Shown here: in pieces, positions 4,456 to 32,444 of the stretch
Position numbering within the stretch: position 1 is the first letter of the stretch
Layout: every line of letters starts with the position of its first letter
NCBI GenBank assembly: GCA_965248835.1
Contig: CBDFLJ010000001.1
Coordinates: 192,001 to 256,000, forward strand
DNA: 64,000 nt
Origin: Alphaproteobacteria bacterium
GTDB taxonomy: Bacteria; Pseudomonadota; Alphaproteobacteria; MPNO01
Reading direction: 5' to 3'
Notes under the pieces: model-generated
The model's input: the letters and a program-made list of their open reading frames with translations, nothing else
Databases searched by the model: none
Told to the model about the DNA's origin: nothing
Translations under genes and position numbers: made by a program

Positions 4456-4839
4456 CAATAACAGTCCCAACGATTTTCGCGTCGGCAAGGAAAATGTCGA
4501 ATACCTCCACCCGGTACGTGTCAATTACGGTAACCGGACGTGCGCAGAACCTACCCTGTCGTCATCTGAGTCCACCGTTTCAACGACAATCGGACATCCC
4601 TTCGATCACCGCTACTGCCAGCAGGGCGGCGTCGGTGAGGCTCGCCTGGAGACATTTGACTCATAGGCATACGCATCACTGGCAGGCCAAGGCCAGATCG
4701 TGCTGCCCTCGACGGGTCGCCGGCGCCCGTAGTTTCATTGTGGAGGAGTTGGCTGGGGGGCGAATTTCGGAGACGAGTGGCCCGAAACCACCCAGCAGGG
4801 CAGAGCCATGGTGAATCCGCGAGTCGACGAGGTGCCCCG

Positions 4840-7800
4840 ATGAGTGTTCCGATCGACGAGATTAGCATCCACGTCAACCCCTTTGTGACGCGGCTAATCC
4901 GGCTCCAGCAAGACGGTAAGGAGGCAATCAGCGGCCCCGCGAACTGGCGTGAGCCGCCATTGCTCGACATCGCTACCGACTCCAACGATGCCATCGATAC
5001 GCTCCTAAAGGCGATGTGCCCATCGCCTGGGGACGCGCCTCATCGGGGTCGATGGCACTGGCTGATCGGTTCACCGGGAAACGGGAAGTCCGCCAAGCTC
5101 GGCCTGCTCGCTCGCCGCTTGCTAGAGCGCCGCTACGAGATTGTCTCCGAAGACGGCGTGGTGATCGGGGAAAGCGACGCGGACTGGCTACCGTACCTGC
5201 TCGAGGTCCGCGAAGAGGGAAAGCCCTACAGGTTTGCCTACCTCGTGCAGGATGCCTCCGTCGTCCGGAACCCCTTCGGTGCTGTCTGCAATCCTGCGGA
5301 AGATCTCGCGGCCGTTCTCAGGCTAGCTGCCGCGCGCGGTACGTCCCTTCTGGTGTGCACGAACTGGGGCGTACTACAGCGCCTCTTTGACCTGGGGCAC
5401 ACGGACCGAGGGGTGCGAGAGGAGCCCTGGTTTCGCGCCGTGAGCGGGGCAATTCAGAAGAGTGAGAGCGGCGTGACAGTCCGCGCGGGTGGCAGCACTT
5501 CCGGCGAGAAGACGGTCTTCGACGAGCTGGAGGTCACGTACGAATTCCTCGATAACCGTAGCCTGCTGGTCAACAGTGACGTCTTTGAACGCCTCTTCGA
5601 GAAGGCGACCGTTGAACAGAATTGGGATGCATGCTCCGGCTGCCCCTCCATGTCGTTGTGCCCCTTAAAGGCCAACCGAGACGATCTTGCGTCGGACGGT
5701 GTTCGCCGTAACGTCCTCGACATCCTGCGAAGAGCAGAGGTGCTGGACGGCCAGATCATCGTTTTCCGCGAGGCCGTGGCGCTCCTTTCCGTGCTACTGG
5801 CCGGATGCCCAGATGACCACGGGGGCGGTACGCCCTGCGAGTGGGTCCACGACCAGGTGCAAGGCAACAGGCTCTTCAACCTACTCGCTCGTCGAGTTCC
5901 TTCGATCCTGTTCGGGGCCACGAGATCACACGGCCTCGAAGGCCCTGAACGCCACAGCCCGGGTACGATAGCCAGTCGGCGTGACCAGATCTCCGCGCTG
6001 GAGGCAATCGATGGCTTACTCTGTGGCACGTCGCCCGTCCGTCAGGCACTCGCCGCCGTGACGCGGTCCGGAGAGCTGTCCACAGACGTCGGCGTCGAGC
6101 GGTTGCTGGGGCCGGATGGCGCGATTCCAGCTCTCGACCCGTCGATTGAGCCTCGACATGCCGTCGAACTGGACGAGTTCGTCGCGATCGCTACCTCTGC
6201 CCGATCCGCCGATGTGTCAGGAGACAAGTCTTCTTCCCCCGGGATGCGAGCGATCGAGGAACACTGTCTACGGGCTTGGGAGGAAATCTTCGACGCGATC
6301 GCCGCGAAAGGTGATCCAGTGACCGGTCAAGACCTTTACTTTTGGGCACGCCGCTGGCAGACGACTTGCCTCGCTTGGATCGCGGCTGTGACACGTGGCC
6401 TGACGGCGCTTCAGCCGGAGTTGGACAACTACCTTGCGTTCCTCAAGACACATGGAGAGTCGGCTGGGCGACTGGCCACGATAAAGAAGCTTGAGGACGT
6501 CTTAGAGCCCTTCCGGAAAGTTCTTGAATCGGAAGAATCGTTTGTGATTCTGTGCTGGGCATCCGGTTTACAGGAGGAAGCCCGATGTGGACTGCGGAAC
6601 ACCGCCGCGCGGCGGAGCGTCGCGGACTTCGCTATCCGAGTGATCTGACCGACGCCGAGTGGGCGCTGATCGCGCCAATGATCCCGCCTGCCAAGCGCGG
6701 CGGGCGCAAGCGCTCAGTCGACGTGCGCGAGGTTCTGAACGGCATCTTCACCGTGCTGTCCACGGGCTGCCAGTGGAATGCACTGCCCAAGGATCTGCCG
6801 CCGAAGTCGACGGTGTACGACTATTTCGATCTATGGGAGTGGGATGGCACGCTGGAGCGGATCCATCATGAACTCTACGTCGCGGTGCGCGATGAGGAAG
6901 GACGCGAAGCCAGCCCGTCGGCCGCGGTCATCGACAGCCAGAGCGCCAAGGCGGCGCAAAAAGGGGGGCGTCGATCGACGATCAAGGCTTCGATGCGGGC
7001 AAGAAGGTCACCGGTCGCAAGCGGCACATCATGGTCGACACGCTCGGCCTGATGCTGGGCATCGTGGTGCATTCCGGCGACGTTCAGGATCGCGACGGTG
7101 CCCACGAGCTCTTGCGCCGCACCCGGCGACGGTTCCCATTCATCGAGGTGATCTACGCCGACGGCGGCTATCAGGGACCGAAGATGGCCGCGACTGTCGC
7201 CAAGACCGGGGGGTGGCGGCTCGAGATCGTCAAGCGCAACGACGTGCCCCGCTTCGAGGTGCTGCCAAAGCGTTGGATTGTCGAACGCACCTTCGCCTGG
7301 ATCAGCCGCAACAGGCGCCTCGCTCGCGACTTCGAACGTCACGTTCGATCCGTCGTCGCCTTCATCCGACTCGCCATGATCCGCATCATGCTGCGCAGAC
7401 TCGCCGCAACCCACTCACCATAGATTCAAACTTTCCGGATCGGCTCTTAGAGAAGTTGCTCGCTCCTCGAGAACTCAACGGTGACAGTGACGTGCACGTC
7501 GAACTGGCGACGTCTCTCTGGCTAACGGGTCGATGGGCTGAGTTAGAGTTCAGACCCCGCCTCCAACACGACGGTGCCAGCGACAGTAACGCCTTGCTCG
7601 TCAAGATGAGCGAGTTCCATCCATTCGTCGTCACCGCAGAGACGTTTACATGGCTAAGTCGACAACACGAGCTGAATCTGAGCGACCTGTCGTTCAACCC
7701 GGACGTCTTGGAGTCGCTCCGCCGAACACAGGCCCAAGCGGCTGCCGCGAGCCAATATTCCGTACAAGATGATGACGTCGCAATAGTCATAGTCGACGAA

Positions 7801-7857
7801 CAGGGTACCGAGCACCGGTTCGAAAGAACGCGGGGATTCCTCCTCGAAGCGGAGTAG
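4840..7857 (+). pseudogene. P-loop NTPase with Cys motif, DptF/DndF-like (690 aa reconstructed), split by IS5
   Basis: ATG 4840 after GAGGTG; Walker A GSPGNGKS, YLVQDAS, TNWGVL, CSGCPSMSLCPLKAN; removing 6505-7449 joins ...LEDVL|EKLLAPR... in frame. Confidence 0.7.
6505..7446 (+). mobile_element. IS5-family (IS1031-like) element, 942 bp
   Basis: IRs GAGCCCTTCCGGAAAG / CTTTCCGGATCGGCTC; TTA duplication at 6502-6504 and 7447-7449; two-ORF transposase (YPSDLTDAEW; KRWIVERTFAW) with an A5G6 frameshift site near 6958. Confidence 0.92.
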
Positions 7858-7863
7858 CTGTAG

Positions 7864-9387
7864 ATGGGCAGGATCGAGAACGAGCCGGCGCTTCCAGAGT
7901 GCCTCGGTAGCAAGTCTTTGGTGTTCGCTCCGACGGCGGGGATGAGACTCGCACCGGAAGTGCTTGTGTTCGAGTTATTCCGCGAACTGGGCTACGGAGA
8001 CTCGCGAAACGCCGTCGAAACGAAAGCCCAAGAATTCTCGGACGTAGTCGATACTCCGTCCTTGTCCAAGGCAGAGCGACTTCTACTCGCGACCTGTCGG
8101 GGACGGCAGAAGAAGACGAGGGCGCGGAGAAGCGAGTTCTTCTACGCCCCACCGTACCTTGGGCTCTCTCGCCATGCCTGGCTCCGAAAGCGGACTGATA
8201 GGACCATGCGCGACTACTTCCTCGGTGGTCCTTTGGCCCACCAGGAAGCGCTTGGGAATTTCGACAAGGACCTCGTAGTTCGGGCGCTCGTGGGTCATCG
8301 CAGCGCACGTGTCGTGAAGGAGTCGCCGGGTAAGGAGATCCTGTCGTTGCTGGCTCTCGAGGAGCGTGCTGATCCGCTTCCAGACGCTGTCCTTGACTAC
8401 CTCACGAATGCGGTTTCTGACGCTCGTAGCGCGCCGCTGGCCTTCGGTCGGCACACCGATCTCTTGGCATCCATCCTGACCGAGGACTTTCTCGAACTCT
8501 GCTGCTTGGAAGCGAGGATCGCACGCCGTGAGTGGCTCTTTTTGCTAATCGCGTTCCTTAGGGTTGCAACAACTGTGTGGATGCTCGCCCACCTGCGTAT
8601 CACGATAATGGTGCGGGACTGGGTGCTCTCCGCTGCTCTGAAGCAAGCAGCACCAGCGGTAGACGAGATGCTCAGTGCGATCTGCAAGCGCCACGAAGGA
8701 GTGCTTCACCCGTCATCGTCGCCGACTCGCGAGGTGTTCGAGCACGTTGAGACGTACATGCGCGCCCGCGTGGAGCTCCGACTCCTGGTGCGGAAAATCA
8801 AGATGATGAACGCCGAATGCTTCACAGCCGCGACTGGAGAGGTCAAGACGCTGTCTCTTGATCGGCGGGGCGCGGGCTTCATTACGCTTGGCGATCTGCT
8901 AGTTCTCGCCCAGAACTCCGATTGGTCGACGGTCGTGGACGGGCAAACGCTGCGTCAGTGGCTCACTCGGGAGGCCGAGAAATACCCAGCATGGCGTTCG
9001 CCGCGAACGCGAGGTCAGGGCAAGAACATCGACGAGTTCATCCGGGTCCTCTATCGATCCGCAGACGACGATTCGGGCAGTGGCCTGCTCATCAGGTGTC
9101 CAGAAACGACTACGAAGATCGTTCCCGGCCATCGCCTGCTCCAGCTGTTTACGTTCCTCGCCGCGCGAGCCAAGTGCCGGTCACGGGGAAAGGAAGGAGG
9201 CAAGCTGGTACTGCGGGACATCGAGCAGCACCTCTATGACTACGGGATTGACTTCCGCTCCAGTTCCTTTGGACGTCCCCTGCTCATAGAGAAGCTGATG
9301 GAAGGAGGGTTTCTCGTGGGGAGCCCTGATGCCGGGGAGAGCGCGGAGGTGCTCGACACGGTTGGAGCGGCGAGGTCAGCCGCATGA
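7864..9387 (+). CDS. 507-aa hypothetical protein, positional DptG/DndG analogue
   Basis: Long ORF 6 nt after gene 1 with ATGA overlap to gene 3; C-terminal SPDAGES; no catalytic motif recognised. Confidence 0.6.
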   Translation: MGRIENEPALPECLGSKSLVFAPTAGMRLAPEVLVFELFRELGYGDSRNAVETKAQEFSDVVDTPSLSKAERLLLATCRGRQKKTRARRSEFFYAPPYLGLSRHAWLRKRTDRTMRDYFLGGPLAHQEALGNFDKDLVVRALVGHRSARVVKESPGKEILSLLALEERADPLPDAVLDYLTNAVSDARSAPLAFGRHTDLLASILTEDFLELCCLEARIARREWLFLLIAFLRVATTVWMLAHLRITIMVRDWVLSAALKQAAPAVDEMLSAICKRHEGVLHPSSSPTREVFEHVETYMRARVELRLLVRKIKMMNAECFTAATGEVKTLSLDRRGAGFITLGDLLVLAQNSDWSTVVDGQTLRQWLTREAEKYPAWRSPRTRGQGKNIDEFIRVLYRSADDDSGSGLLIRCPETTTKIVPGHRLLQLFTFLAARAKCRSRGKEGGKLVLRDIEQHLYDYGIDFRSSSFGRPLLIEKLMEGGFLVGSPDAGESAEVLDTVGAARSAA

Positions 9388-12300
9388 GGATCCTGTCACG
9401 AGTACTGAGCGATCTCGCCGCGAAGCACGTCGCGGCGGTTCGGTCCGAGGAGCGCGATTGCAGATTGATCTTCCCTGGGCTCACGGAATCGCTTGCAGTT
9501 GAGCTGCACGAGGAGTTGCGGCGCCGAGTAGCCGCAGGTGCCGACGGAAGCGCCTCTGGCATCCCAGTCTACCTGGCACTTGATTACCCGGGATCGCGTT
9601 TCGGTCCTGACAAGTCGAAGGGCTGGCTGCACTACGAGGCCGTGACGAGTGTTCGGCAGGGCAGTTTCGTCACCGTCTGCATGCCGAAGGTCCTTCCGAA
9701 GCTCCATGACTCGATCCGTGGGACTGGGAGCCCTATTCGCGGATTGACGTTTGCCGACGAGTGGCCGTGGAAGGACGGCGGCGTGGAAGCCTTTCGCTTC
9801 AGCGGGCCGGTCCTTGAGGCCATCCTGGACATGTGGACGGCCGACACAGCGTCCCGCCGATGGATCAGGGAAATAATCCTTGAGGGGCTGCTCCCAGCTA
9901 CAGCCCCGCTACGAGACGCGATCCGTGTTTCCCTGCTGTTGGAGGGGATCCTGGGGTCCTTCGAACCCGCGCTCTATCCGGAGCTCGATGACGTAGTCGA
10001 CAAGTTCTGCTTCCACTGCGGCATTCCGCGAGTGGTGTCTCGCGAGACAGTCAACCCGAAGGACTACGTCGATTCGGTCGTGAGCACCGCCAAGGCGCTG
10101 GAAGAGCAGAGAACGACAAACCCCGAGTTCCGCGACTACCTTGTGAACGAGGTAGCGGTGAGCACATTCGCGGCGCTCGACCCTGGTTCGCTTCAGCAGC
10201 TCAGGAGTTCACTCGACCTGCTATTGGACGGAGCACTCGAACTTGGAGCAGACAGCGGCCTGCTCGCGTATCGCGGTGGGCTCGGAAATGAGTCGAGTTC
10301 CGCGAGCATCGAGGCGTGGTCCGCGTTGGACGTGGACCGGCTACGGAAGCTCTTCGGCGTGGGTGAGCCGGACACAGTGCAGTGCACCGCATCTTTGCCG
10401 GAAGGCAAAGGTGTGGTGTCGACCGACGGGAAGCAAGTGGCCATCTTCGAGGGAGCGCCGCTCGCACTGAATATCGCAGTAAAGATCGGGACTGATCGTT
10501 TCGAATCCGGAGATTTCCAGATTCTATGCAAGCGACGTCAGCGCCAGCTCTACGAGCAGGAGTGCGACGAGGCGGAGTTCCAGTCAACCTTCAACGTACC
10601 GCCGAACGAGTTGCCCGGAACTCGGAACCGACACAGCTTGGTGGTTCAGCTCGTTCGATTTCAACAGATCGTGAGAGAAGCCCGCGTAGACGTCCACGTT
10701 TGCGGAACCGCGAGACCTGCTCTGTGCGTATTTGAGCCCGACTTCAATATCGTCGATCTCTTGGAGTCCGAACCGGACTCCACCGATTCAGAGTCGGTCA
10801 TGCTGACCTGTCGAGAGCCCGTACGGGCGCACGTGCTCGACTGGCGAGCAACGGACCCGTGCCGCGTGACCGCGGATGATGAGATCCTACCGCTGAATGT
10901 TGCCGAACATCCTGCCAACGGGGAGCCTGGTCCAACCCGGTACAATCTCCGAGAGGCGATTGACGTGGAGAGCTTCTCCGGCGCGCGAATAGACCTGCGG
11001 ATCGAAGCTTCAGACCTTGAGCGGGATGTGACGCTCTTTGGTGAGGACATCGAGCCTGGTGAGTTCACCCTCGAGGACGAGCTCCGAGTTGCCACTGCTG
11101 CAGCCAGCGCATCACGTCTACGCCGGGTTCTGCCGTTCTTCCGAGGCGACGGAGATTTCGTACTCCCGAAGCTTGGCGAGCTTGACGCCGCCTCCCGACG
11201 CCGCGTGGATCTCGGTCGGGTTTTCGAGGAGCCGGACGGGTGGAAGCCTGTGCTGGTCGATTTCGTTGAGGCTGCGGGGTGCGAAATCGACGCACTGGTC
11301 TCTCGGCCATTCTGGAGAACGACTGGGACGAGCCTGTCCTTCCTTGAGGACATGGAGCCGACCGACTCCTTCGACGCGGCTCTCGCGCAGTATGCCCGGT
11401 GCCGAGACACCGTCATCCAGATAGCGAGGAGCTACGTCCAGGAGTACGCCACGCCGTCAGAGCGACCCCTCTACATCGTCGCGCCGATCTATGTGGCGCG
11501 CGACGACGTGTCTATCGAGACCGCGATCTCGCAGTACCTCGACGCATACTCGGCCGTCTTGAACCTGCTCCTGGACGGTAGCTTGTCGCCGGGTGAGGTC
11601 TTTACGTTCGTCCACTTGGATTCGGTCGTGCTTGAGCGTTCTCGCGCTGATGAAAACCAGCTCGACCTACGAATTTCGCTGCTTGGCCCATGGCATCCGC
11701 TCGTCGTCGCGAAGCGCTTCATGGTCCAGCACTGGATCTACGCTGCGGCAGAGGAGAGCGGCCGCCTGGCGAAGCAGCACAGGCGGCTCGCGTCCCTGTT
11801 CGAGGGGGTGGATGGGTTCAGGGTGGTGCCGGGATTCGATGCTGACAGCCTCGGTCTGGACGTGTCGTTCGCCTTTCCCACATCCGATCCCGGGTGGCAC
11901 TTGGCGGTCGCCAGCAGTGCGTTCTCGGCCTTGGCGGGCAGCAGCCTCGGCAGCCTGCGTGGGTTTGGGGGAAAGCTTCGGCGTTCGCAGGGCCTCAGAT
12001 CGTCGCTCTACCTTGCGGGCACCGACCTTTGGAGCGAGAGCTTCGTTCGCAGTTTCCAACGCTCGCATCCCTCAAGGCGGCAGCTCGGGCTTCGCGTTAG
12101 TCGAGGGCTTGACGCCAGACCGGTGGTCGACTCTTGTGCGCGGCTGCTCGGTGACCAGCGGGCGCGGTCCGGTCGCCTTGGGGCGCTGCTGCCCGGTGGA
12201 ATCCACCTCTTCCTAGAAGAACGCCTCGACGAGCGCCAGCGGCTGCCGTGGCAACAACCGGCGGTGTTCGTCTACGAGGCGCTGCAGGACGCCCACTGCT

Positions 12301-14885
12301 ACGAGAACTTTCACCCCGACATTCTCTTGCTCCCGCAACGCGAAGAGGTGCGTCCGGCGTGGCTTCCGGGCAGGACCGACGAAGGCCTCGCGGTGCCCAG
12401 GGGACGCGATCGAGGCGCGGTGTTCTCCATGCCGCTCGTTGACCTAAGCACTGATCGCCATGGCCTCCCGGTGTCACGCATCCAGGAAAGTGGCGAGGCT
12501 GGCGTTGCTGAGCGTCACGTGGCCGAAGGTGCTCGCGAAGGTGACTTGCCTCCCGTGGGCGAGGGCTACCGCAGGGCGCTGGCGTCGATTGACGAGCTGG
12601 CAAGTCAGGTCCGCCCGCAACGACCCGCGCTCGTCCAGGAACTCGGCCTTCCACCGTCGCTTCGATGTGATTGGACCGTGCTTCCCGGGGCGCATGTCGA
12701 TGCCGGCGCGCTGGCAACCTACATCGCTGGTCGCGGTGCGGCAGAGGGAGAGGAACGGGCGTTGTGGGACTACCGGCTTGATGTCGGTCGGTCCGTGAGA
12801 AGCTACTTCATAGTTTGCAAAGTCCCGAAGTCCGTTCTGTCTTCGCTGACTGCGAAATCGCTGGCTCTCGGGCCCGAGGACGCGTCTTCGGCACTTCGAG
12901 AACTCGCCGAGGTGGGGTTCGCGGTCGGCGAGACGATGCGGTCTGGTAAGGCGGCGGTGGGTGTGCTCGGGGTCGTAGGAGCGCTCCGCCTTGCGCGAGC
13001 AGCATGGGCCGCTGGCGAGGCCAACGGGCGACGCTGGTGTACTGTCCTCCTACCAGTTGATTGTATCACGGACCTCCTGGTGGCTCCGCCCGACGTGGAA
13101 ACCCCGAGCAAGCGCACGGACTTACTCGCCATCAATCTTGCATGGAGGATCGAGGGGCCGCCAACATTGACGATTTCGCCATGTGCGGTCGAGTGCAAGT
13201 ACGTCTCGGAGACGTATGCCGCCAGCACAGTCCAAGACGCCCTTGGGCAAGCCGAGGCGACCTACCAGGTCGTGTGGCAGCTCCTCTCGCTGGCGCAATC
13301 GGAAGCCGGTATGCACGCGCGACTTGCGCTCTGCCACATACTGCGGTTCGGCCTCCGGCTCCTCGCCGCGCGGGGAGACGCGACGATGGCCGACGAGCAA
13401 GCCATCCTTGACGCGACACTCTCGGGATCGTTCGACCTCTCGCCACCTGTCGCCCCCAGCCTTCTGGTGACCACGAGTTGCGGCACGACCGGTGATGGCG
13501 CCGTCGATGTGCGTGCGGGTGGCTGGTGGGTGGGGCTAACGGCTGATTGCTGGCCCAGGGAGATCCCGTCACTCTCGAACCCGCTAGTTCGGCAGCTGTC
13601 AAAAGTGTTCCCCGCGATCGAGCCGCACACAGGCGACGGTAGCACTAGGAAGGGCGGGGAGGCGACGAGAACGAGTTCGCCAAACAGTGCCGCGGGTACC
13701 CGTGGTCTTCGTGAATCGGCAGGGCAGGAAGACGGTGCACCGTCGGCCGCTGAACTCCATGGCGAAGACGATGCAGAACGGTCTTCCCGCGCCGAAGCAC
13801 CCGAGACGCCGTCCAAGTCGGACGAACGGGAAGTGGAGGCAGGGGCCGCGGCGGCCTCCGACAACCTCATCCACCCGGTCTTCAAAGGTTTCGTAGGTAA
13901 CAGGGCTGCGGCCGAAGCACTGAGTATCCAGCTCCGGTACGTGGAACAAACGGGAACCACGGCGATCAGATCCGTCGGCTTGTTCGGTCCCAAGAGTACC
14001 GGGAAGACTGAACTCTCCCGACGATTGGCGGGCGCATTGGGGGTGCCCTATCTCCCGCTTAGCGAGACGGGCCTGCGCGATATCGACCAGCTTGCTGACC
14101 GAATGCAGGAGCGTGCCCGCGAAGCCGGGAAACCAATGACTGTGGTCGATCACCAAGGCGGGCAGGCGGTCCTCCGCTCGCCACCGATTCTCGTATTCAT
14201 TGACGAGGTGCACCAACTCAGCGCAAGGGTTCAGGATACGCTCCTGCCTGTCTTGGAAGCCGATGACCGGATGTTACGCGGCTCCCGAGTGATCATCGAC
14301 GCGCGAGATGTCAGCTTCGTCATTGCGACAACCGATTGGGGCAAGCTCCGCGAGGCGTTTCGCAGCCGAGTGCGCGCCGTCATGCTCGAGCCGTACAACA
14401 CTGATGAGGTTGTCCGGATGTTGCGGTATCGCATCGAGTCTGCCTCTCGAGATCACGACGCGGGCGCCGACGTCGACCCATCAGTTGGGCAGCTCAGCGA
14501 AGATGCGCTAGTCGCGATTTCCACTGCCGCGAGGGCGGTGCCCCGGGTGGCGCTAGACCTCCTTCGCGAGATCGGCATGGCACTTCGGATCCGCATCTGC
14601 GGACCAAGTGTGGACGCAGTCTGGGGGCACCTCCAGAAGATGGTGCCGTGCGACCGGCAAGGGCTGACGAGCCGCGACCGCAAATACCTGCGCATCGTGG
14701 CGAACCGCGGCCCGATCGGGCTGGACAACATCGCCACGGAACTGGGCACAGACCGGTCTAATGTGGAGGGAGCAATCGAGCCGTTTCTCGCCCAAATGGG
14801 CTGGGTTCAGTGGGGTTCAACCGGGCGGACGCTGACCACCAGCGGGAGACGACTCGTGGCGCAGCTCCCGCACCCAGACGGGTGA
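9384..14885 (+). CDS. 1833-aa protein: unknown N-terminus + PD-(D/E)xK-like motif + C-terminal RuvB-like AAA+ and winged helix (DptH-like position)
   Basis: RTDLLAI...AVECK (D1246, E1270, K1272); FVGN, GPKSTGKT, FIDEVHQL, ATT...FRSR, ARAVPRVA, GLTSRDRKYL..GPIGLDNIA..IEPFL..GR.LT. Confidence 0.8.
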   Translation: MRILSRVLSDLAAKHVAAVRSEERDCRLIFPGLTESLAVELHEELRRRVAAGADGSASGIPVYLALDYPGSRFGPDKSKGWLHYEAVTSVRQGSFVTVCMPKVLPKLHDSIRGTGSPIRGLTFADEWPWKDGGVEAFRFSGPVLEAILDMWTADTASRRWIREIILEGLLPATAPLRDAIRVSLLLEGILGSFEPALYPELDDVVDKFCFHCGIPRVVSRETVNPKDYVDSVVSTAKALEEQRTTNPEFRDYLVNEVAVSTFAALDPGSLQQLRSSLDLLLDGALELGADSGLLAYRGGLGNESSSASIEAWSALDVDRLRKLFGVGEPDTVQCTASLPEGKGVVSTDGKQVAIFEGAPLALNIAVKIGTDRFESGDFQILCKRRQRQLYEQECDEAEFQSTFNVPPNELPGTRNRHSLVVQLVRFQQIVREARVDVHVCGTARPALCVFEPDFNIVDLLESEPDSTDSESVMLTCREPVRAHVLDWRATDPCRVTADDEILPLNVAEHPANGEPGPTRYNLREAIDVESFSGARIDLRIEASDLERDVTLFGEDIEPGEFTLEDELRVATAAASASRLRRVLPFFRGDGDFVLPKLGELDAASRRRVDLGRVFEEPDGWKPVLVDFVEAAGCEIDALVSRPFWRTTGTSLSFLEDMEPTDSFDAALAQYARCRDTVIQIARSYVQEYATPSERPLYIVAPIYVARDDVSIETAISQYLDAYSAVLNLLLDGSLSPGEVFTFVHLDSVVLERSRADENQLDLRISLLGPWHPLVVAKRFMVQHWIYAAAEESGRLAKQHRRLASLFEGVDGFRVVPGFDADSLGLDVSFAFPTSDPGWHLAVASSAFSALAGSSLGSLRGFGGKLRRSQGLRSSLYLAGTDLWSESFVRSFQRSHPSRRQLGLRVSRGLDARPVVDSCARLLGDQRARSGRLGALLPGGIHLFLEERLDERQRLPWQQPAVFVYEALQDAHCYENFHPDILLLPQREEVRPAWLPGRTDEGLAVPRGRDRGAVFSMPLVDLSTDRHGLPVSRIQESGEAGVAERHVAEGAREGDLPPVGEGYRRALASIDELASQVRPQRPALVQELGLPPSLRCDWTVLPGAHVDAGALATYIAGRGAAEGEERALWDYRLDVGRSVRSYFIVCKVPKSVLSSLTAKSLALGPEDASSALRELAEVGFAVGETMRSGKAAVGVLGVVGALRLARAAWAAGEANGRRWCTVLLPVDCITDLLVAPPDVETPSKRTDLLAINLAWRIEGPPTLTISPCAVECKYVSETYAASTVQDALGQAEATYQVVWQLLSLAQSEAGMHARLALCHILRFGLRLLAARGDATMADEQAILDATLSGSFDLSPPVAPSLLVTTSCGTTGDGAVDVRAGGWWVGLTADCWPREIPSLSNPLVRQLSKVFPAIEPHTGDGSTRKGGEATRTSSPNSAAGTRGLRESAGQEDGAPSAAELHGEDDAERSSRAEAPETPSKSDEREVEAGAAAASDNLIHPVFKGFVGNRAAAEALSIQLRYVEQTGTTAIRSVGLFGPKSTGKTELSRRLAGALGVPYLPLSETGLRDIDQLADRMQERAREAGKPMTVVDHQGGQAVLRSPPILVFIDEVHQLSARVQDTLLPVLEADDRMLRGSRVIIDARDVSFVIATTDWGKLREAFRSRVRAVMLEPYNTDEVVRMLRYRIESASRDHDAGADVDPSVGQLSEDALVAISTAARAVPRVALDLLREIGMALRIRICGPSVDAVWGHLQKMVPCDRQGLTSRDRKYLRIVANRGPIGLDNIATELGTDRSNVEGAIEPFLAQMGWVQWGSTGRTLTTSGRRLVAQLPHPDG

Positions 14886-15592
14886 TGGGCGCCGGAGCGG
14901 TCGGCGTGGGATTTTCGAAATCGCGGCGACGGGAGTATCGGGATCGGGAGATCGTCAGGCGTTTGCTGTCGTGGTTTGACGACTACGGCCGTCAACTTCC
15001 GTGGCGGCACAGCACCATGGAGCCGTGGCAGGTGCTCGTGGTCGAGATACTGCTGCAGCAGACGCGCGCGGAGAGGATTGGCGCCTTTGTGCCAGCGTTC
15101 CTGGACGACTTCCCGTCGTTGCGTGCGCTGGCCGAAACCGACGAGCCAACGTTAGCTGAAAGGCTGGCGACACTAGGGCTGCAAAATCGGCGTGCGGGCC
15201 GGCTCGTTGCCCTAGCCGGTGTGCTACTGGCAAGGGACGGTCAGATCCCCAACTCCAAGCCGGAACTCGAATCGCTCCCAGGAGTCGGGCCCTACGTCGC
15301 TGCCGCGTACATGTCCACCGTCCTCGAACAGCCAGAGCCGATGGTTGACGTGAACATGGCACGGCTGATTGAGCGGCTCTACGGACCAAGGACGCTGGCA
15401 GATATCCGGTACGATCCGCACATTAACGGCATCGCCCACCGGTTGATCCACCTTGCAGCCCGACCCAAGGAGTTCAACTGGGCAGTGCTGGACCTCGGCG
15501 CCGCGCATTGCACGGCGCGGTCTCCATCGTGTGTCGGCTGCCCTCTACTAGAGGTTTGCCCTTTCGGTCGACCACGCGTCACGAGTGCTTGA
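14885..15592 (+). CDS. HhH-GPD [4Fe-4S] DNA glycosylase (MutY/Mig-like, no MutT-like C-domain)
   Basis: TGATG overlap with the upstream stop; RQLPWR, EILLQQT, LPGVGPY, VDVN, C-x6-C-x2-C-x5-C. Confidence 0.88.
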   Translation: MGAGAVGVGFSKSRRREYRDREIVRRLLSWFDDYGRQLPWRHSTMEPWQVLVVEILLQQTRAERIGAFVPAFLDDFPSLRALAETDEPTLAERLATLGLQNRRAGRLVALAGVLLARDGQIPNSKPELESLPGVGPYVAAAYMSTVLEQPEPMVDVNMARLIERLYGPRTLADIRYDPHINGIAHRLIHLAARPKEFNWAVLDLGAAHCTARSPSCVGCPLLEVCPFGRPRVTSA

Positions 15593-17242
15593 GCCTGGTC
15601 TGGTGCGTCGAGCAGACGTAATGGCGGCTCGGAAAGCAGTGTCGATTTCGTCGAGTTGTGACCGTGCTGTACCCTTCACATTGGGCGTCGTGTAGAACCC
15701 ACCGTCAGGCTCGAAACGGCAAGCTGGGTCCTCCTCGACGAGGAGCAGGAACTGCCTAATCCGTGCTGCCACCGCGTGGGCAAACCGTGGGGGAACCGCG
15801 TTCGCGACTTGCGTATATTGCGGGACGTAGACTCCCGCACGCCTCCGCTCCGCCCCCGTCGTTCGGACGCCCTTGAACTCGAACCAGTCGGGGAAGGTCT
15901 GGAGACGAGCAACCTCTCGAACCGTGGGAATCCTATCCTCAGCGTGGTGGACGATATCGTCGGGAAGTGACGTGACCGTGAGCATCGGCCACTCGTCCGC
16001 GAGAAGCACGCGTTGCGATGCTTTCTTGGTGACGAGCTCGGGAAACTGCTCGCTGAACTGGCGGCGAAGCCACCCGCTGCTACACCGATGCTTTCGTGCT
16101 TCTGGCGAGCTCGTTGCAGCCGTACGAAGAAGCTGGAGTTTCCGAGCCACGTCGGGGCGATGCGAAGACGCCTCGTGGTTGAAGTACTCTTCCAATGTAG
16201 CCTCGCCTGCCGAGTCCATGATCCCGCCGTCGAGGTATTGCGACTGCAGAGCCCTCACTTCGCGGAGGAACCCGCTCGGACCATGCCTCCCATTTCGACG
16301 GTACGGCTGGCTCCAGCTCTTTCCGGTCCCGTAGGGCGGCGGTGTGCCCGCCAGATCGCTGAGGATCTCCTTGGCGGCAAGAGAAGACCCTGCCGGTACC
16401 GCCGCTCCCAGGAGCCGACCGTCGGTTGGTCGGCTGTGTGGACAGGCGACCGGGAATAGCAGCCGTGGCAAACTCTCGCATGCGCTGGGATGAACGAGGT
16501 CTCGACGGACTGCTACGAGCAACAGGCGTCGTCGGGTCTGCGGGACGCCGAGAGGTTCGCCGTGGACGATCTCAGCGTACACGTAGTACCCGGGGCGGTT
16601 CTTGCCCCGGCGAGAGAGTCCCAGGCCGATCTTGCGGATCAGGTCAGCGTGACGCTCCAACATGCCCAGGACGTTCTCCAAGATGGCAATGCGCGGTTGG
16701 ACGACACCGATGACTCGAATAGCTTCGTGGACGAGTAAGTTCCGCTCGTCGTCTGGGCACGCTTTGCCGGCGGACGAGAAGCCCTGGCACGGTGGGCCCG
16801 CCACGAGCAAGTCGATGCCGGCGGGGCGGCGCTTAAGCCACGTCCGCAGCCACCGGTCTGGCAGCACCTCGCGGATGTCGCCACCACGCATGTGACGCTC
16901 GAAGTCCTGAGGGAGCGCTTCCCGGTCCTTGAGCATTTGCTGTCGAGCCTCGGCCCGGTACGCCTTGCGCGCGCGCGTGGATGGGTCATCAGGTCGTTCT
17001 GGAAACACGCCTTCCAGCGTGTCGCTAAGGATGTTGTGCCGATACGTCCACTCCGCGTCGACTGAATACTCGTTGGCGAGCACGACGTCGAAGCCTGCTC
17101 GGCGTAGCCCCAGCGAGAACCCGCCCGCTCCCGCGAAGAGGTCAATGGCTGTCGGTACTCGGTGAAGGACAGCGGCGTCGCGTCCCGTGCGTCCACGCCC
17201 ACCGGTGCTGCTCTTCGCAGTGATCCTCTCTCGTCCTCCCAC
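15548..17242 (-). CDS. DNA (cytosine-5)-methyltransferase
   Basis: Motifs I DLFAGAGG, IV GPPCQGFS, VI ENV, VIII QTRRR, IX TVREVARLQTFPD, X QVANAVPP. Confidence 0.93.
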   Translation of the reverse strand: MGGRERITAKSSTGGRGRTGRDAAVLHRVPTAIDLFAGAGGFSLGLRRAGFDVVLANEYSVDAEWTYRHNILSDTLEGVFPERPDDPSTRARKAYRAEARQQMLKDREALPQDFERHMRGGDIREVLPDRWLRTWLKRRPAGIDLLVAGPPCQGFSSAGKACPDDERNLLVHEAIRVIGVVQPRIAILENVLGMLERHADLIRKIGLGLSRRGKNRPGYYVYAEIVHGEPLGVPQTRRRLLLVAVRRDLVHPSACESLPRLLFPVACPHSRPTDGRLLGAAVPAGSSLAAKEILSDLAGTPPPYGTGKSWSQPYRRNGRHGPSGFLREVRALQSQYLDGGIMDSAGEATLEEYFNHEASSHRPDVARKLQLLRTAATSSPEARKHRCSSGWLRRQFSEQFPELVTKKASQRVLLADEWPMLTVTSLPDDIVHHAEDRIPTVREVARLQTFPDWFEFKGVRTTGAERRRAGVYVPQYTQVANAVPPRFAHAVAARIRQFLLLVEEDPACRFEPDGGFYTTPNVKGTARSQLDEIDTAFRAAITSARRTRPGSSTRDAWSTERANL

Positions 17243-17821: not shown

Positions 17822-20050
17822 ATGAGCGGCGTAGTCAAACAGCAACCGGAATCGTCAACCCAGGAGGTTCTGGCAGGCCTCGTCGAGCGCGTGACGTTTC
17901 ACAATGCCGATAACGGGTTCTGCGTTCTGAGAACCAAGGCCCGCGGCCATCGCGATCTCGTGACGGTCGTCGGCCATGCCGCCATGGTCTCGGCCGGAGA
18001 GTGGATTACGGCATCGGGGGAATGGATCAACGACCGCACCCATGGTCAGCAATTCAAGGCGCGCTTCATGCGCACCTCGGAGCCGTCCTCGATCGAGGGC
18101 ATCGAGAAATACCTCGGCTCCGGCATGATCCGCGGCATCGGCCCGGTCTACGCCGGGAAGATGGTCAGGGCGTTCGGCGAGCAGGTGTTCGATATCATCG
18201 AGGCGGAGCCGGAACGGCTCCGCGAGGTGACCGGTATTGGCCGGGTGCGCGCCAAGCGCATCACCGACGCCTGGGCGGAACAGAAGATCATCCGCGAGAT
18301 CATGGTTTTCCTGCACAGCCATGGCGTCGGCACGGCGCGCGCGGTGCGGATCTACAAGACCTACGAAGTGGATGCTGTTCAGGTCATGACCGAGAACCCG
18401 TACCGCCTCGCACGCGACATTCGCGGCATCGGGTTCAAGACCGCCGACGCGATCGCCATGAAGCTCGGCATCGAGAAGACGGCCATGATCCGGGTGCGCG
18501 CGGGGATTTCCCATGCGCTGACCGAGGCAATGGACGACGGCCATTGCGGCCTTCCCGCCGAAGAGCTTGCGCCGCTCGCCGTCGAATTGCTGGAAGTCCC
18601 AAACGAGTTGGTTCAGACCGCTCTGGACTTCGAACTGGCCGAGGGAACGGTGGTCGCGGACACGGTTGGCGACACCCCCTGTATATTCCTTGGCGGCCTG
18701 TACCGGGCCGAACGGGCGATTGGCGAACGGTTTCTGAAGCTCGCGGACGGCAAGCTCCCCTGGCCGGATATCGATGCCGGCAAGGCACTGCCCTGGGTCG
18801 AGGGGAAGACCGGCCTGTCGCTTGCAGCGAGCCAGGCCAATGCTGTTCGCCTGGCCCTGACTTCCAAGGCCATGGTGATCACCGGCGGGCCGGGCGTGGG
18901 CAAGACGACCATCGTCAACGCCATCCTGCGCATCCTGGCCGCCAAGGGCGTGGACCTGCTGCTGTGCGCGCCGACCGGCCGCGCCGCCAAGCGAATGACA
19001 GAGGCGACCGGGTTCGAAGCAAAAACGATCCACCGGCTGCTCGAAGTCGATCCCAGGGGCGGTGGGTTCAAGCGCGATGCAGACAGCCCTCTCGACTGCG
19101 GCCTGCTGGTCGTCGATGAGACCTCGATGGTCGATGTCATGCTGATGCAGGCGCTGCTGAAGGCGGTCCCCGACACGGCTGGGCTGCTGATCGTGGGCGA
19201 CATCGACCAGTTGCCCTCGGTCGGTCCGGGCCAGGTGCTGGCCGGCATCATCGACTCCGGCGCGGTCCCGGTCGTACGGCTGACCGAGGTATTCCGCCAA
19301 GCGGCGCGAAGCCGGATCGTCACCAGCGCGCACGGGATCAACCGGGGCGTCATTCCCGATCTTTCCAAGCCCCAGGGTGACAGCGACTTCTACTTCGTAC
19401 AGGCGGACGATCCGGAAACCGCGGTGCCGATGATCATCGAGTTGGTGAAGACGCGCATCCCGAAGCGCTTCGGGTTCGATCCGGTGCGCGACATCCAGGT
19501 GCTGTGTCCGATGAACCGCGGCGGTGCCGGCGCCCGCTCGCTCAACATCGAACTGCAGGCCGCCCTCAATCCGGCCGGCGAGCGCAAGGTCGAACGCTTC
19601 GGCTGGACCTTCGCGCCCGGCGACAAGGTGATGCAGATCGAAAACGATTACGACAAGGAAATCTATAACGGCGACATCGGCTATGTCGACGATGTCGATC
19701 CCGATGAAGGCGAGCTGACCGCGCGTTTCGACGGGCGCGCCGTCGCCTATGGCTTCGGCGAGCTCGACACGCTGGTTCCGGCATACGCCGCGACGATTCA
19801 CAAGAGCCAGGGCTCGGAGTATCCCGCCGTCGTTATCCCCCTCTTGACGCAACACTACACGATGCTCCAGCGGAACCTGCTCTACACCGGCGTAACGCGC
19901 GGCAAACGGCTGGTCGTGCTGGTCGGACAGAAGAAGGCGGTGGCCATCGCCGTGCGCAACGTCTCGGGGCGGCGGCGCTGGTCGAAGCTCAACGAGTGGC
20001 TGGTAACCGTTCCGCCAGGCCGTGATAGTCCAGACGGGCGGAGGCAATGA
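17822..20050 (+). CDS. recD2: RecD2-like SF1B ATP-dependent DNA helicase
   Basis: N-terminal OB/HhH region, TGGPGVGKTT, APTGRAAKR, VVDETSM, GDIDQLPSVG, TIHKSQGSEY, LLYTGVTRGK. Confidence 0.9.
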   Translation: MSGVVKQQPESSTQEVLAGLVERVTFHNADNGFCVLRTKARGHRDLVTVVGHAAMVSAGEWITASGEWINDRTHGQQFKARFMRTSEPSSIEGIEKYLGSGMIRGIGPVYAGKMVRAFGEQVFDIIEAEPERLREVTGIGRVRAKRITDAWAEQKIIREIMVFLHSHGVGTARAVRIYKTYEVDAVQVMTENPYRLARDIRGIGFKTADAIAMKLGIEKTAMIRVRAGISHALTEAMDDGHCGLPAEELAPLAVELLEVPNELVQTALDFELAEGTVVADTVGDTPCIFLGGLYRAERAIGERFLKLADGKLPWPDIDAGKALPWVEGKTGLSLAASQANAVRLALTSKAMVITGGPGVGKTTIVNAILRILAAKGVDLLLCAPTGRAAKRMTEATGFEAKTIHRLLEVDPRGGGFKRDADSPLDCGLLVVDETSMVDVMLMQALLKAVPDTAGLLIVGDIDQLPSVGPGQVLAGIIDSGAVPVVRLTEVFRQAARSRIVTSAHGINRGVIPDLSKPQGDSDFYFVQADDPETAVPMIIELVKTRIPKRFGFDPVRDIQVLCPMNRGGAGARSLNIELQAALNPAGERKVERFGWTFAPGDKVMQIENDYDKEIYNGDIGYVDDVDPDEGELTARFDGRAVAYGFGELDTLVPAYAATIHKSQGSEYPAVVIPLLTQHYTMLQRNLLYTGVTRGKRLVVLVGQKKAVAIAVRNVSGRRRWSKLNEWLVTVPPGRDSPDGRRQ

Positions 20051-28945: not shown

Positions 28946-29974
28946 ATGCACAAAATCATCAGTGTCCTCATCTCCGTCTTCCGCGAAATCGTCCTTGGCC
29001 GCGCAGCGCTTCATACAGAAATCCTTGCCCTCCGCCAGCAGGTGGCTGTCCTGAAACGGAAAAAGCCCCGGCCATCGCTTCGGAAGGCAGATAGGGTTGT
29101 CTGGGTCATCCTGTCTTACCTATGGCCTGGCTGGCGCCACTCCCTGGTAATCGTCAGGCCCGAGACCGTCATCGGTTGGCACCGCAAGGGGTTCAGGCTT
29201 TTCCGGACATGGAAGTCGCGGCGGGGAAAGCCAGGCCGGCCACCGGTGTCGAGGGAGATCCGCGATCTGGTCCGACGGATGTCGCGGGAGAACACACGGT
29301 GGGGCGCACCTCGGATCCATGGCGAGCTTTTGAAGCTTGGCTTTTCCATCTCCCAGGCCGCCGTCTCGAAATACATGGTCCGTTACCCCTCGCCGCCCTC
29401 GCAGGTGTGGCGGACATTCCTTACAAATCACGCCGATTGCCTGGCGTCGATCGACTTTTTCGTGGTCCCCACGGCCACGTTCCGCCTCCTGTTCGGGTTC
29501 ATCGTGCTCCACCACGAGCGCCGCCAGATCGTGCATTTCGGTGTAACGGCGAACCCGACGATGGCGTGGGTCGCACAGCAGATCCGAGAGGCATTCCCGT
29601 GGGAAACAACACCCCGATACCTGCTCCGCGATCGAGATCCCGTATACGGGGTCGAGTTCCGGGACCACGTATTGTCGATGGGCATCGAAGAGGTTGTCAC
29701 GGCGCCACGATCACCATGGCAAAACCCTTATGTTGAACCTGTGATCGGCACCCTTCGACGGGAATGCCTGGACCACGTAATCATCCTAAACGAGCGGCAT
29801 TTGCAGCGCATTCTTGGCTCATACCTCGACTATTATCACGGTTCGAGAACCCACTTGTCGCTCGGCAAGGACAACCCGTATGGACGATCCGTTCAGCCGG
29901 CCAGTCCCGGAAAGGTTGTTTCCCTGCCCAAGGTCGGTGGCCTGCATCATCGTTACGAGCGTCTCGCGGCCTGA
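28946..29974 (+). mobile_element. Integrase-core (rve) transposase
   Basis: WGAPRIHGEL.KLG, SIDFF, RDRD, SPWQNPYVE..IGT.RRECLD, GGLHHRY. Confidence 0.85.
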
Positions 29975-30116: not shown

Positions 30117-31259
30117 CTAGTGGATAAAATCTAACAGACGATTCCCTTGTCCGAGCGTATGTGCGAGTCTGCGGGCATGCGCACAGGGATTACCTTCGAG
30201 GTTTGCGTCGCCGACCGTGCTCGTCTGGAAGCGGTCGTGGCGGACAGGAACAGCCCGCAGAAGCATGTCTGGCGGGCCGGGATCATTTTGGCCACGGCTG
30301 CCGGCGCGGGGACGGTCGAGATCATGCGCCGGACCGGGAAGTCGAAGCCTTGCGTCTGGCGGTGGCAGGAACGGTTCATGGCCGAGGGCGTCGATGGCCT
30401 GCTGCGGGACAAGACCCGGCCTTCGCGTATTCCGCCGCTCGAACCCGGTGTCGCCTTGCGCATCGTCGATCTGACCCTGACCGATCCGCCCGCCGAGGCG
30501 ACCCACTGGACGGCCGCCATGATGGCCGGGAAGCTCGGCGTTTCCGTCTCTTCCGTGCAACGCATTTGGCGCGCCCACGGGCTCCAGCCTCATCGGGTGC
30601 GCCAGTTCAAGCTCTCCAAAGACGCCAACTTCGCCGACAAGCTGCGCGACGTTGTCGGGCTCTATGTCGACCCGCCCGCCCATGCCATCGTGCTCAGTGT
30701 CGACGAAAAGAGCCAGATCCAGGCCCTCGATCGCACGCAGCCCGGCCTGCCGCTAAAGAAGGGCCGCGCCGGAACGATGACCCACGATTACAAGCGGCAT
30801 GGCACGACCACGCTGTTCGCCGCCCTGAACGTCCTCGACGGCACGGTCATCGGCCGCAACATGCAGCGTCATCGCCATCAAGAATTCATCCGCTTCCTCA
30901 ACACGGTCGAGGCCGGAACGCCCGCCGGCACGGTCATCCATGCCATTCTCGACAACTACGCCGTCCACAAGCACCCCAAGGTCCGACGCTGGCTCGACCG
31001 TCATCCGCGCTGGACCTTTCACTTCACACCGACTTCCTGTTCCTGGCTCAACGCCGTGGAAGGCTTCTTCGCAAAACTCGCCAAGCGCCGGCTCAAACGC
31101 GGCGTCTTCCACTCCGTCGTTGACCTTCAAGCCGCCATCAACCGTTTCGTCGCCGAGCATAACGCCAGCGAGGCCAAGCCATTTCGCTGGACCGCGGACC
31201 CGGACAAAATCATCTCCGCCGTCAAACGCGGGCATCAAGCGTTAGATTCCATCCACTAG
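30117..31259 (+). mobile_element. IS630-family element, copy A
   Basis: CTAG-bounded IRs TGGATAAAATCTAAC / GTTAGATTCCATCCA; transposase with VDEKSQIQAL, ILDNY, SWLNAVE. Confidence 0.93.
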
Positions 31260-32444
31260 TCACCCGAATCTAAAGTTGGTGGCATAAGTTTTGATCGACG
31301 CGGAGGCAGAAGCGTTTGACGGCGGCGAGGATGTCGTCGGCTGATTTGGTCCATTTGAAGGGCTTGGGGTCTTCGTTGTGTTTTTCGATGAAGGCGCGGA
31401 TGTCGGCTTCGAGCTGCTTCGTCGAGGTATGAACGCCGCGTCGCAGTTGCTTGCGCGTCAATTCGGCGAACCAGCGCTCGACCTGGTTGATCCAGGAGGC
31501 CGAGGTCGGCGTGAAGTGGACATGATAGTGCGGCCGCCGCGCCAGCCAGGCTCTGATCGCGGCGGTCTTGTGGGTGGCGTAGTTGTCCATGACGATGTGG
31601 ATGTCGAGATCCTCGGGGACGCGGGCGTCGATCTGCTTCAGAAAGTCGAGGAACTCCCTGGCCCGGTGGCGCCTGTAGCACTTGCCGATGACGAAGCCCG
31701 TGGCGACATCGAGGGCGGCGAACAGCGAGGTCGTCCCGTGCCGGACGTAATTGTACGTCCGCCGCTCGGCCATGCCCGGCATCATCGGCAACACCGGCTG
31801 TTCGCGGTCGAGGGCCTGGATCTGGCTCTTTTCATCGACACAGAGCACCAGCGCGCGGTCCGGCGGCGACAGATAGAGCCCGACGATGTCGCGGACCTTG
31901 TCGACGAACAGCGGATCGCTCGACAGTTTGAAGGTCTGCGAGCGGTGCGGCTGCAACCCGAAGGCCGTCCAGATGCGCCGGATCGTCGTGTGCGACAGCC
32001 CGGTCTCCCGGGCCATCGAGCGGAGCGACCAATGGGTCGCATCCGCCGGCGTCGCGTTGAGCGTCCGTTCAATGACCTGTGCCACTTGATCATCCTCGAT
32101 GGTCCGCGGCCGCCCCGGCCGAGGCTCATCCGACAGTCCGTCGATGCGGTCCTTCAGGAAGCGGCGGCGCCACTTGCCGACCGTGTGCTCGTGCACGCCG
32201 AGCTCGGCAGCGACCGCCTTGTTGGTCAGACCAGCCGCGCAACGCAGGATCATGCGGCAGCGGTCCGACACCGCGCGCGCGATCTGGCGACGGCGGAGCT
32301 GACGCTCGAGATACGACCGTTCTGCATCGCTCAGAACCAAAGCCGCAACCGGCCGGCCAACGCCACGCACCATCGCAAACACCTCCAAAGCCCAACGACG
32401 ATGGCCATCATATAGTGCAATTTACTTCAGTTCCAGGTGACTAG
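31256..32444 (-). mobile_element. IS630-family element (second type)
   Basis: CTAG-bounded IRs TCACCCGAATCTAAAGT / ACTTCAGTTCCAGGTGA; 372-aa transposase 31270-32388. Confidence 0.92.

Follow-up and report, generated by a model that had tools for sequence, protein, structure and literature searches.

What is a RuvB-like motor doing at the end of a protein whose body resembles the H subunit of Dnd-type restriction systems? The question is raised by a gene in the genome of an Alphaproteobacteria bacterium (MPNO01; assembly GCA_965248835.1), within a stretch of 64,000 nt (CBDFLJ010000001.1, positions 192,001-256,000, forward strand) that was analyzed as a whole and is called the window below; positions refer to it unless another locus is named. 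The gene, here called H, encodes 1,833 residues and stands in a cassette with genes for a C5 cytosine DNA methyltransferase, a DptF-like protein (F), a DndG-like protein (G) and a DNA glycosylase. Our analysis indicates that H is a DndH/DptH-type protein carrying a RuvB-like module in place of the usual HerA/FtsK motor, and that motors have been exchanged in this family at least twice. The parts of H, with the evidence that defines them, are as follows.

9384..14885, + strand: H gene, whole open reading frame (ORF), 1,833 aa (open for 1,833 codons)
9384..13637, + strand: DptH-type body, residues 1-1418 (hhalign against DptH; BLASTP against the HerA-ended protein P0392)
13119..13199, + strand: PD-(D/E)xK nuclease motif, D1246 ... 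E1270-x-K1272 (invariant, 24/24)
13638..13865, + strand: low-complexity linker, residues 1419-1494, motor-exchange breakpoint (likeness to HerA-ended relatives stops at 1418)
13866..14882, + strand: RuvB-like AAA+ module, residues 1495-1833, with ATPase, lid and winged helix (Pfam, NCBIfam, PDB, AlphaFold 2 (AF2), Foldseek)

The C-terminal part of H carries the landmarks of RuvB in their usual order: FVGN (1503-1506), Walker A GPKSTGKT (1535-1542), Walker B FIDEVH (1605-1610), sensor-1 ATT (1648-1650), the arginine finger R1662, LEPY (1668-1671), sensor-2 VPR (1719-1721) and a winged helix running to GRTLT (1814-1818). The original prediction, made from the letters of the window, had recognized this order and bounded the module at residues ~1500-1833; the end stands, while the start moves to ~1495 (position 13866), directly after the linker. 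Pfam RuvB_C (PF05491) was matched over residues 1759-1823 with 51.3 bits (cut-off 24.7) and Pfam AAA with 41.3 bits (cut-off 21.2). The proposed Pfam check was, therefore, borne out for RuvB_C but not for RuvB_N (PF05496), which reached 22.1 bits in the window's protein, under its cut-off of 27, and is present in the precomputed domain lists of many relatives. Scores for the NCBIfam RuvB equivalogs TIGR00635 and NF000868 lay well under their cut-offs (92.6 versus 282 bits and 83.9 versus 299.05 bits, respectively), with DnaX as a secondary match. Against the PDB, phmmer returned RuvB for all of the best 18 distinct sequences (E 1.5e-21 to 3.7e-10). An AF2 model of the module, built from a 62-row alignment, had a predicted local distance difference test score (pLDDT) of 95.2 and a predicted template modelling (TM) score (pTM) of 0.90; among the Foldseek matches listed for this model, all 20 rows down to rank 42 were RuvB (E 1.4e-22 to 1e-15, ~316-349 alignment columns, TM 0.63-0.73 by query length), and the next listed row was Lon at rank 46 (E 1.4e-10), the listing omitting similar chains past rank 10. 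Walker A, Walker B, sensor-1, R1662 and R1721 were invariant in 24/24 aligned long family members. By motifs, profiles and modelled fold, residues 1495-1833 thus form a complete three-domain RuvB-like AAA+ module that is predicted to be catalytically intact. A generic AAA+ or MgsA-type domain was considered and ruled out, the module being a full three-domain RuvB-like unit with RuvB_C.

Is this simply the RuvB of the cell, relocated? The module shares with RuvB (TIGR00635; PDB 9dx4, 7x5b, 1in4) the three-domain fold, Walker A and B, sensor-1, arginine finger, sensor-2 and the RuvB_C winged helix, but differs in being fused to a 1.4-kaa (thousand-residue) nuclease body, in scoring below the equivalog cut-offs, in falling outside the housekeeping clade and in having no adjoining ruvA or ruvC. 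Aligned to housekeeping RuvB, 6/6 module sequences carry 21 inserted residues immediately ahead of the Walker B strand, which form an extra beta-hairpin in the AF2 model, and the pre-sensor-1 hairpin is shorter by 3-6 residues across six module rows (by 6 in the window's protein), without the GEGPAA tip. Modules of the window's subgroup have a further insertion in the lid. A three-copy complex prediction of the module scored 0.25 against a mark of 0.42, which speaks neither for nor against a ring.

The genome has a canonical ruvB of its own (448.3 bits, over the cut-off) ~0.9 Mb from the cassette, where ruvC, ruvA and ruvB stand together as an operon; beside the window's cassette, the ORF list and a Pfam scan contained neither ruvA nor ruvC, in agreement with the original prediction. 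A ruvB over the cut-off was likewise present in 10/10 other genomes with a RuvB-like-ended gene. Because the ruvC-ruvA-ruvB operon lies elsewhere, the window's module is not the housekeeping RuvB. The phylogeny that had been recommended as a check gave the same picture: in a module tree of 60 rows (quick IQ-TREE; support by the Shimodaira-Hasegawa-like approximate likelihood ratio test, SH-aLRT), 13 housekeeping RuvB proteins from diverse genomes formed one clade (SH-aLRT 99). The other side (92) held 43 of the 44 rows for fused or defence-linked modules. The exception, the short row P0238, joined the housekeeping side at 80. The module, therefore, appears to belong to a separate lineage outside housekeeping RuvB that is found in defence-gene contexts.

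The fusion is shared widely. A search for long RuvB-ended proteins, also suggested at the outset, found 124 of 1008-3208 aa that match the module at E ≤ 1e-3, most of them 1700-1850 aa with the module at the extreme end. In a 50%-identity library, 3148 proteins passed E ≤ 1e-3 against the module and 86 of them E ≤ 1e-30, with sizes of ~1750, 1150, 600, 470 and 350 aa. Sequencing contigs from four runs of four studies covered 30/30 bins of window positions 9000-15600, and one independent contig record (13236-14126) spans the linker-module junction; this bridging contig and the 124 long proteins settle the initial concern that the join might be an assembly artefact. Only one other genome (G015) among 60 species-level relatives has a long RuvB-like-ended frame, which marks the H gene as accessory. 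The plasmid collection did not contain the fusion, with 0/54 matching records covering ≥80%.

The identity of the body emerged from profile comparison. No curated model in Pfam, NCBIfam or PADLOC matched the first 1400 residues of H, a PDB sequence search with the body gave 0 matches at E ≤ 1, and a protein atlas search gave unnamed clusters only. Specifically, NCBIfam and PADLOC contained no DptH/DndH match to H at E ≤ 0.01, and TIGR03237 (DptH) had no match at E ≤ 1 in the organism's own genome. The only PDB entries for this family are the DptH ATPase domain 7es4 and DndG 7exx. With hhalign, we compared the body (residues 1-1393) of 45 non-redundant family members with that of eight bona fide DptH proteins drawn from one genome, annotated plasmids and database matches. 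The local alignment reached a probability (Prob) of 98.4% (E 5.5e-15, 1071 columns, 10-1352 versus 15-1197) and the global alignment 99.7%; when the family was set against only one DptH sequence, the match was weak and confined to the nuclease region (Prob 27%, E 6.7e-4). The putative nuclease triad D1246/E1270/K1272, invariant in 24/24 family members, aligns with the D...EVK motif of DptH. With DptH (TIGR03237), H shares the collinear body, the SP.HPL and D...E.K motifs and a linker followed by a C-terminal ATPase motor. The C-terminus of H is RuvB-like, not HerA/FtsK; HerA_C/TrwB matches occur only in a sister clade, described next. The profile evidence identifies H as a predicted DndH/DptH-type protein with its usual HerA/FtsK motor replaced by a RuvB-like module. 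The original prediction had proposed just such a replacement, which both the hhalign result and the collinearity of HerA-ended relatives up to residue 1418 now support.

These relatives came from a search with the body only (residues 1-1390), which returned 99 proteins: 56 with RuvB-type domains, seven short ones without a recorded domain and 36 with PF10412. The latter are ~1850 aa long, ~30% identical over 100% of the body and lack RuvB_C, with or without PF05872 or PF01935. Direct scanning of a sister C-terminus gave HerA_C at 38.4 bits (cut-off 22) and TrwB_AAD_bind at 36.0 bits (cut-off 20.5). As an example, P0392 of Dehalococcoides mccartyi CG4, named hypothetical protein by NCBI and representative of the group of loci L105-L153, is collinear with H by BLASTP over residues 1-1418 versus 1-1379 (433/1454 identical, 30%). 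Past residue 1418 the two have nothing significant in common, the breakpoint lying inside the low-complexity linker. The 56 metagenome loci of the HerA-ended group have the same cassette, and among the 17 with enough flanking sequence the methyltransferase, F and G were each present in 17 and the glycosylase in 13. When 121 genomes of one class were searched with P0392, only the motor region was matched. The HerA/FtsK-ended sister cassette, thus, has the same five genes in the same order and a collinear H body up to residue 1418, but differs in the HerA_C/TrwB_AAD_bind P-loop motor that follows the linker.

How often the motor changed was addressed with body trees that had canonical DptH as their root (FastTree on 70 rows by 1377 columns; quick IQ-TREE on 26 rows by 1327 columns). 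The window's RuvB-ended clade (100) lies inside an otherwise HerA-ended clade (100), and larger RuvB-ended clades lie outside that HerA-ended clade, so that the motor label needs at least two changes. Constraining all RuvB-ended bodies together cost 34.3 log-likelihood units (approximately unbiased (AU) test, p 0.018; the group was named after the tree had been seen). In the module tree, the window's module does not group with those of the main RuvB-ended clade. Because of the body trees and the AU test, our data indicate at least two probable motor exchanges, the direction of each not being readable from the trees.

Exchange of the DndH motor has a precedent. Krishnan, Burroughs, Schaffer and Aravind (NAR 2024; PMC10853773) describe DndH as a body, a restriction endonuclease domain and a C-terminal HerA/FtsK ATPase 'captured' from several sources. 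The phenomenon, a C-terminal DndH motor exchanged between lineages, is the same, but the captures in the main text of that paper stay within the HerA/FtsK class, and the words 'RuvB' and 'glycosylase' occur there 0 times. Among the papers searched, we found none that links DndH or DptH with RuvB, and the supplements of PMC10853773 might list such forms.

What, then, is the module part of? The remaining genes of the window's cassette are listed here.

4837..6504, + strand: 5′ part of the F gene (DptF-like P-loop protein), truncated by an insertion sequence (IS) (single ORF in relatives; DptF profile)
6505..7446, no strand assigned: IS5-family insertion sequence in F (TTA(G) direct repeat at 6502-6504 and 7447-7449)
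7450..7857, + strand: 3′ part of the F gene (tblastn to the F C-termini of L027, 6e-58, and L028, 3e-51)
7864..9387, + strand: G gene, 507 aa, DndG-like fold (AF2 model and match to DndG 7exx)
14885..15592, + strand: HhH-GPD [4Fe-4S] glycosylase, 235 aa, Mig/MutY-catalytic-domain type (Pfam HhH-GPD, EndIII_4Fe-2S)
15548..17242, - strand: C5 cytosine DNA methyltransferase (Pfam DNA_methylase, TIGR00675)

The start codon of the glycosylase gene overlaps the stop codon of H (TGATG), that is, the two are translationally coupled, and the methylase gene is convergent with the glycosylase gene. Pfam DNA_methylase (145.7 bits) and TIGR00675 (124.8 bits, over the cut-off) define the methylase, which is 69% identical to the methylase in the same place at locus L028. 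A PDB search with the glycosylase gave MutY at 1.2e-34, the match lying in its catalytic domain, and, at 5.3e-27, the entry 1kea, annotated as 'possible G-T mismatch repair enzyme'.

To see whether these genes travel together, related loci were collected. A single-protein search of genome contigs found none; a family-alignment query succeeded, and the 58 species-genome loci fetched with it plus L010 gave 59 loci for examination. A DptH-like body with a RuvB-like end was present in 25 of the 59, and in these iterated profiles detected F, G and the glycosylase 22 times each and the C5 methylase 19 times. The usual order is methyltransferase-F-G-H-glycosylase on one strand. Of the loci, 16 extend at least 5.2 kb upstream and at least 2.5 kb downstream of H; in this set, the methyltransferase was found in 15, F in 15, G in 14 and the glycosylase in 14, the exceptions being the degraded L047, L028 and L043 without a glycosylase and L029 without a recognizable G. 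No ruvA or ruvC turned up in the cassettes examined, no search having been aimed at them. Host phyla comprised Acidobacteriota, Chloroflexota, Planctomycetota, Gemmatimonadota, Nitrospirota, Verrucomicrobiota, Bacillota and Pseudomonadota.

The cassette has the F-G-H order of DndFGH/DptFGH, the P-loop region of DptF in its F and the DndG fold in its G, but its motor is RuvB-like, and it is partnered by a C5 methylase and a glycosylase in place of dndABCDE. In the organism's own genome, which is 100% complete, neither DndC nor DndD was found at E ≤ 0.001. Because the cassette conserves a C5 methylase and this genome is without DndC and DndD, the linked modification enzyme is a 5-methylcytosine (5mC) methylase, and the cassette is not linked to phosphorothioation. 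From its linkage and its likeness to 1kea, the glycosylase would be the deamination-repair partner of the methylase. With repair partners of the Mig.MthI/Vsr type it shares the 1kea match, the lack of a MutY C-terminal domain (235 aa) and the linkage to a C5 methylase, and it differs from them in its predicted translational coupling to H.

The closest whole-cassette relatives, L027 and L028 (H 72% and 62% identical), are in metagenome-assembled genomes (MAGs) labelled Bryobacterales (Acidobacteriota). The window's genome, for its part, shares its phylum with a genome whose DptH is identical to a gammaproteobacterial protein, and this distribution suggests transfer between phyla. At L027, only 84 aa are left of the glycosylase, and the methylase, at 32% identity, is not the same one.

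F and G were assigned by different means. In relatives, F is a single ORF of ~690 aa, as in L027 (6393-8477, 694 aa), which is 73% identical to both halves of the window's F. The F family aligned with DptF over the P-loop region (hhalign Prob 95.7%, E 1e-8), and the cross-controls F versus DptG and G versus DptF remained below 0.1%. PADLOC SspF models matched F weakly (3.6e-5, 103 residues), and SspG and SspH profiles did not match G and H. The AF2 model of G had a pLDDT of 65.6 and was confident over residues 200-503; its best PDB match was DndG 7exx (VIA-align Z 11.1, root-mean-square deviation 5.1, 252 aligned residues; next Z 5.5), which was also rank 1 by Foldseek (E 0.072, prob 0.98). 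F, thus, resembles DptF by profile, and G resembles DndG by modelled fold.

The element in F is ~0.94 kb long, carries a DUF4096 transposase domain and sits in codon phase within F. The insertion is recent, since 11 further full-length copies in the genome are 99-100% identical; two copies stand head to tail on contig 1 (G000:C1:129397-131292). An ORF at 6778-7857 (P0003, 359 aa) was rejected as a gene, because it starts within the IS, read there in the wrong frame, and no more than its final 135 residues belong to F. The frames of G, H, the glycosylase and the methylase are open. Because F is split by the IS5-family element, the window's copy of the system is probably disabled. The disrupted F, the C5 methylase and Mig-like glycosylase partners and the repeated motor swap all go beyond what the original prediction had noted.

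The cassette surroundings are rich in IS elements. On one side, an IS3-type transposase and an S24 repressor-like gene flank the cassette (1.9-4.0 kb); on the other, at 17.8-22.9 kb, lie RecD2 and a tyrosine integrase. The RecD2 helicase gene (17822-20050; TIGR01448, 873.5 bits) also matches several PADLOC candidate-defence models, and a profile scan of the 25 RuvB-ended loci gave 0 matches for RecD2 adjoining the cassette. Further along, an rve-type transposase gene (28946-29974), two ORFs with IS630-type (DDE_3) transposase domains (30147-31259, + strand; 31270-32388, - strand) and an ORF of the same 370-aa length as these two, identified by length only (38739-39851, - strand), break up a stretch of catabolic genes for a Rieske oxygenase, a molybdopterin dehydrogenase and a hydantoinase.

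RuvB-like modules of this kind were also seen in other architectures. At L039 (9203-11056, 617 aa), a PD-(D/E)xK nuclease (PDDEXK_1) is fused directly to the module, as in ~20 proteins of ~600 aa, and adjoins a 708-aa AAA_16/BrxC-like ATPase; such a two-domain protein may be a minimal nuclease-motor defence unit. Other proteins of 1566-1831 aa ending in a related module occur at L062 (1289-11059), L063 (702-10930), L055, L058 and L010 (genome G015). All five have only the nuclease region (~1093-1305) in common with the H family (hhalign 86-96% for L010, L058, L062 and L063; 62% for L055), and no methylase or glycosylase lies near any of them; at L063, the first gene of the triad contains a DruA domain. 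At L042 (8889-11062), an unfused 363-aa RuvB-like protein directly follows an N6/N4 DNA methylase, near a DUF5131 gene, so that the module lineage also occurs unfused beside modification genes.

How might such a system work? Relevant activities have been reported for its better-known counterparts, namely nickase and translocase activity for DndFGH (PMC11662687) and damage to unmodified DNA by SspFGH (PMC8092258). We consider it probable that H belongs, as its H subunit, to a restriction module of the DptFGH/DndFGH type, encoded in a methyltransferase-F-G-H-glycosylase cassette, whose RuvB-like module pumps DNA to the nuclease. On this account, the C5 methylase would mark self DNA and the H body would recognize unmethylated, foreign DNA. 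The module would assemble as a ring on double-stranded DNA and use ATP to pump it, the same job as that of the HerA/FtsK motor, and the recognized DNA would be reeled to the PD-(D/E)xK nuclease and nicked or cut. The glycosylase would repair T:G mismatches arising from deamination of 5mC and so limit 5mC-to-T mutation. In McrBC-type restriction, too, an AAA+ ring motor works together with a PD-(D/E)xK nuclease, and cleavage follows DNA translocation. The motor there, McrB, is a GTPase from a different AAA+ clade, and its target is modified DNA; in H, motor and nuclease share one chain, and the linked methylase suggests an unmodified target.

Several points weigh against this account. H, F and G are all below every curated DptFGH cut-off, the sequence-profile match of G to DptG is not significant (E 0.033), and the N-terminal 190 residues of G are poorly folded in the model. 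Translocation, ring formation and nuclease activity are predicted for the H family from its sequences, and the role of 5mC as self mark is read from gene linkage alone. The 21-residue insertion and shortened hairpin may mean that the mechanics of the module differ from those of RuvB. The trees behind the motor exchanges are quick or FastTree trees, and the AU group was chosen with the tree in view. Finally, with its IS-disrupted F, the window's locus cannot itself show function.

Among the alternatives, a somewhat unlikely one is that the module is an ATP-driven assembly or licensing switch, in the manner of AAA+ initiators, clamp loaders or McrB, that oligomerizes H and gates the nuclease, with no long-range translocation. 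Clamp-loader subunits are near RuvB in sequence space, in keeping with the secondary DnaX match, the clade-specific insertion could be regulatory, and the module is also fused to a PD-(D/E)xK nuclease alone in the 617-aa protein of L039. Against a switch, the module stands precisely where relatives have a HerA/FtsK-class motor, and it keeps the RuvB-specific DNA-binding winged helix above the Pfam cut-off.

Quite unlikely, in our judgment, is the retargeting of the nuclease by the module to branched DNA of invaders, such as Holliday junctions or stalled or rolling-circle forks, possibly through host RuvA. The motor swap would then alter what is attacked. The original prediction had raised this possibility for branched replication or recombination intermediates and had also called the enzyme self-loading, both of which stay conjectural. 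In RuvB, the pre-sensor-1 hairpin contacts RuvA. H keeps a short version of this hairpin together with all three RuvB domains, winged helix included, and the host has ruvA; however, with 6 residues missing and no GEGPAA tip, the hairpin of the window's protein is reduced, the module is outside the housekeeping RuvB clade, and the cassettes examined revealed no ruvA or ruvC (again without a search aimed at them). Moreover, the same cassette occurs with a HerA/FtsK motor, for which we know of no junction specificity. In favor of retargeting speaks the proposal of Krishnan et al. (PMC10853773) that the process of the invader at which DndH is directed varies with the motor it has captured. To explain the fusion as an artefact of assembly or annotation, or as a pseudogene in decay, is almost certainly wrong: the neighbouring F gene is IS-broken and the region IS-rich, but the H frame is open over 1833 codons, the fusion is common to 124 long proteins, an independent contig crosses the junction and the catalytic residues are invariant.

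A further, speculative and on balance unlikely reading is that ring motors of two unrelated ATPase classes, HerA/FtsK P-loop and RuvB-like AAA+, are plug-ins of one 5mC-keyed Dnd-like machine, the swap being adaptive and retargeting the nuclease to another invader stage or DNA form, for example branched intermediates, with or without RuvA. If true, a whole lineage of RuvB-like modules would be dedicated to defence.

With these findings, the motor capture described for DndH comes to include a motor from outside the HerA/FtsK class. The occurrence of the same cassette with either motor, with breakpoints in one disordered linker, amounts to a natural domain-swap experiment, and it predicts that the motor has a generic job, ring translocation on duplex DNA. 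Our data further point to a RuvB-like AAA+ lineage outside recombination, either nuclease-fused or in short proteins of ~350 aa (some possibly fragments) beside methylases and defence genes; its defence modules are currently mislabelled in annotation as Holliday-junction helicase. They also suggest that restriction of the DndFGH type need not go with phosphorothioation, a large branch being linked to a C5 methylase and a mismatch-type glycosylase, which bears on self/non-self discrimination in Dnd-type restriction. More generally, they suggest that DNA motors of unrelated families are exchangeable in bacterial immunity.

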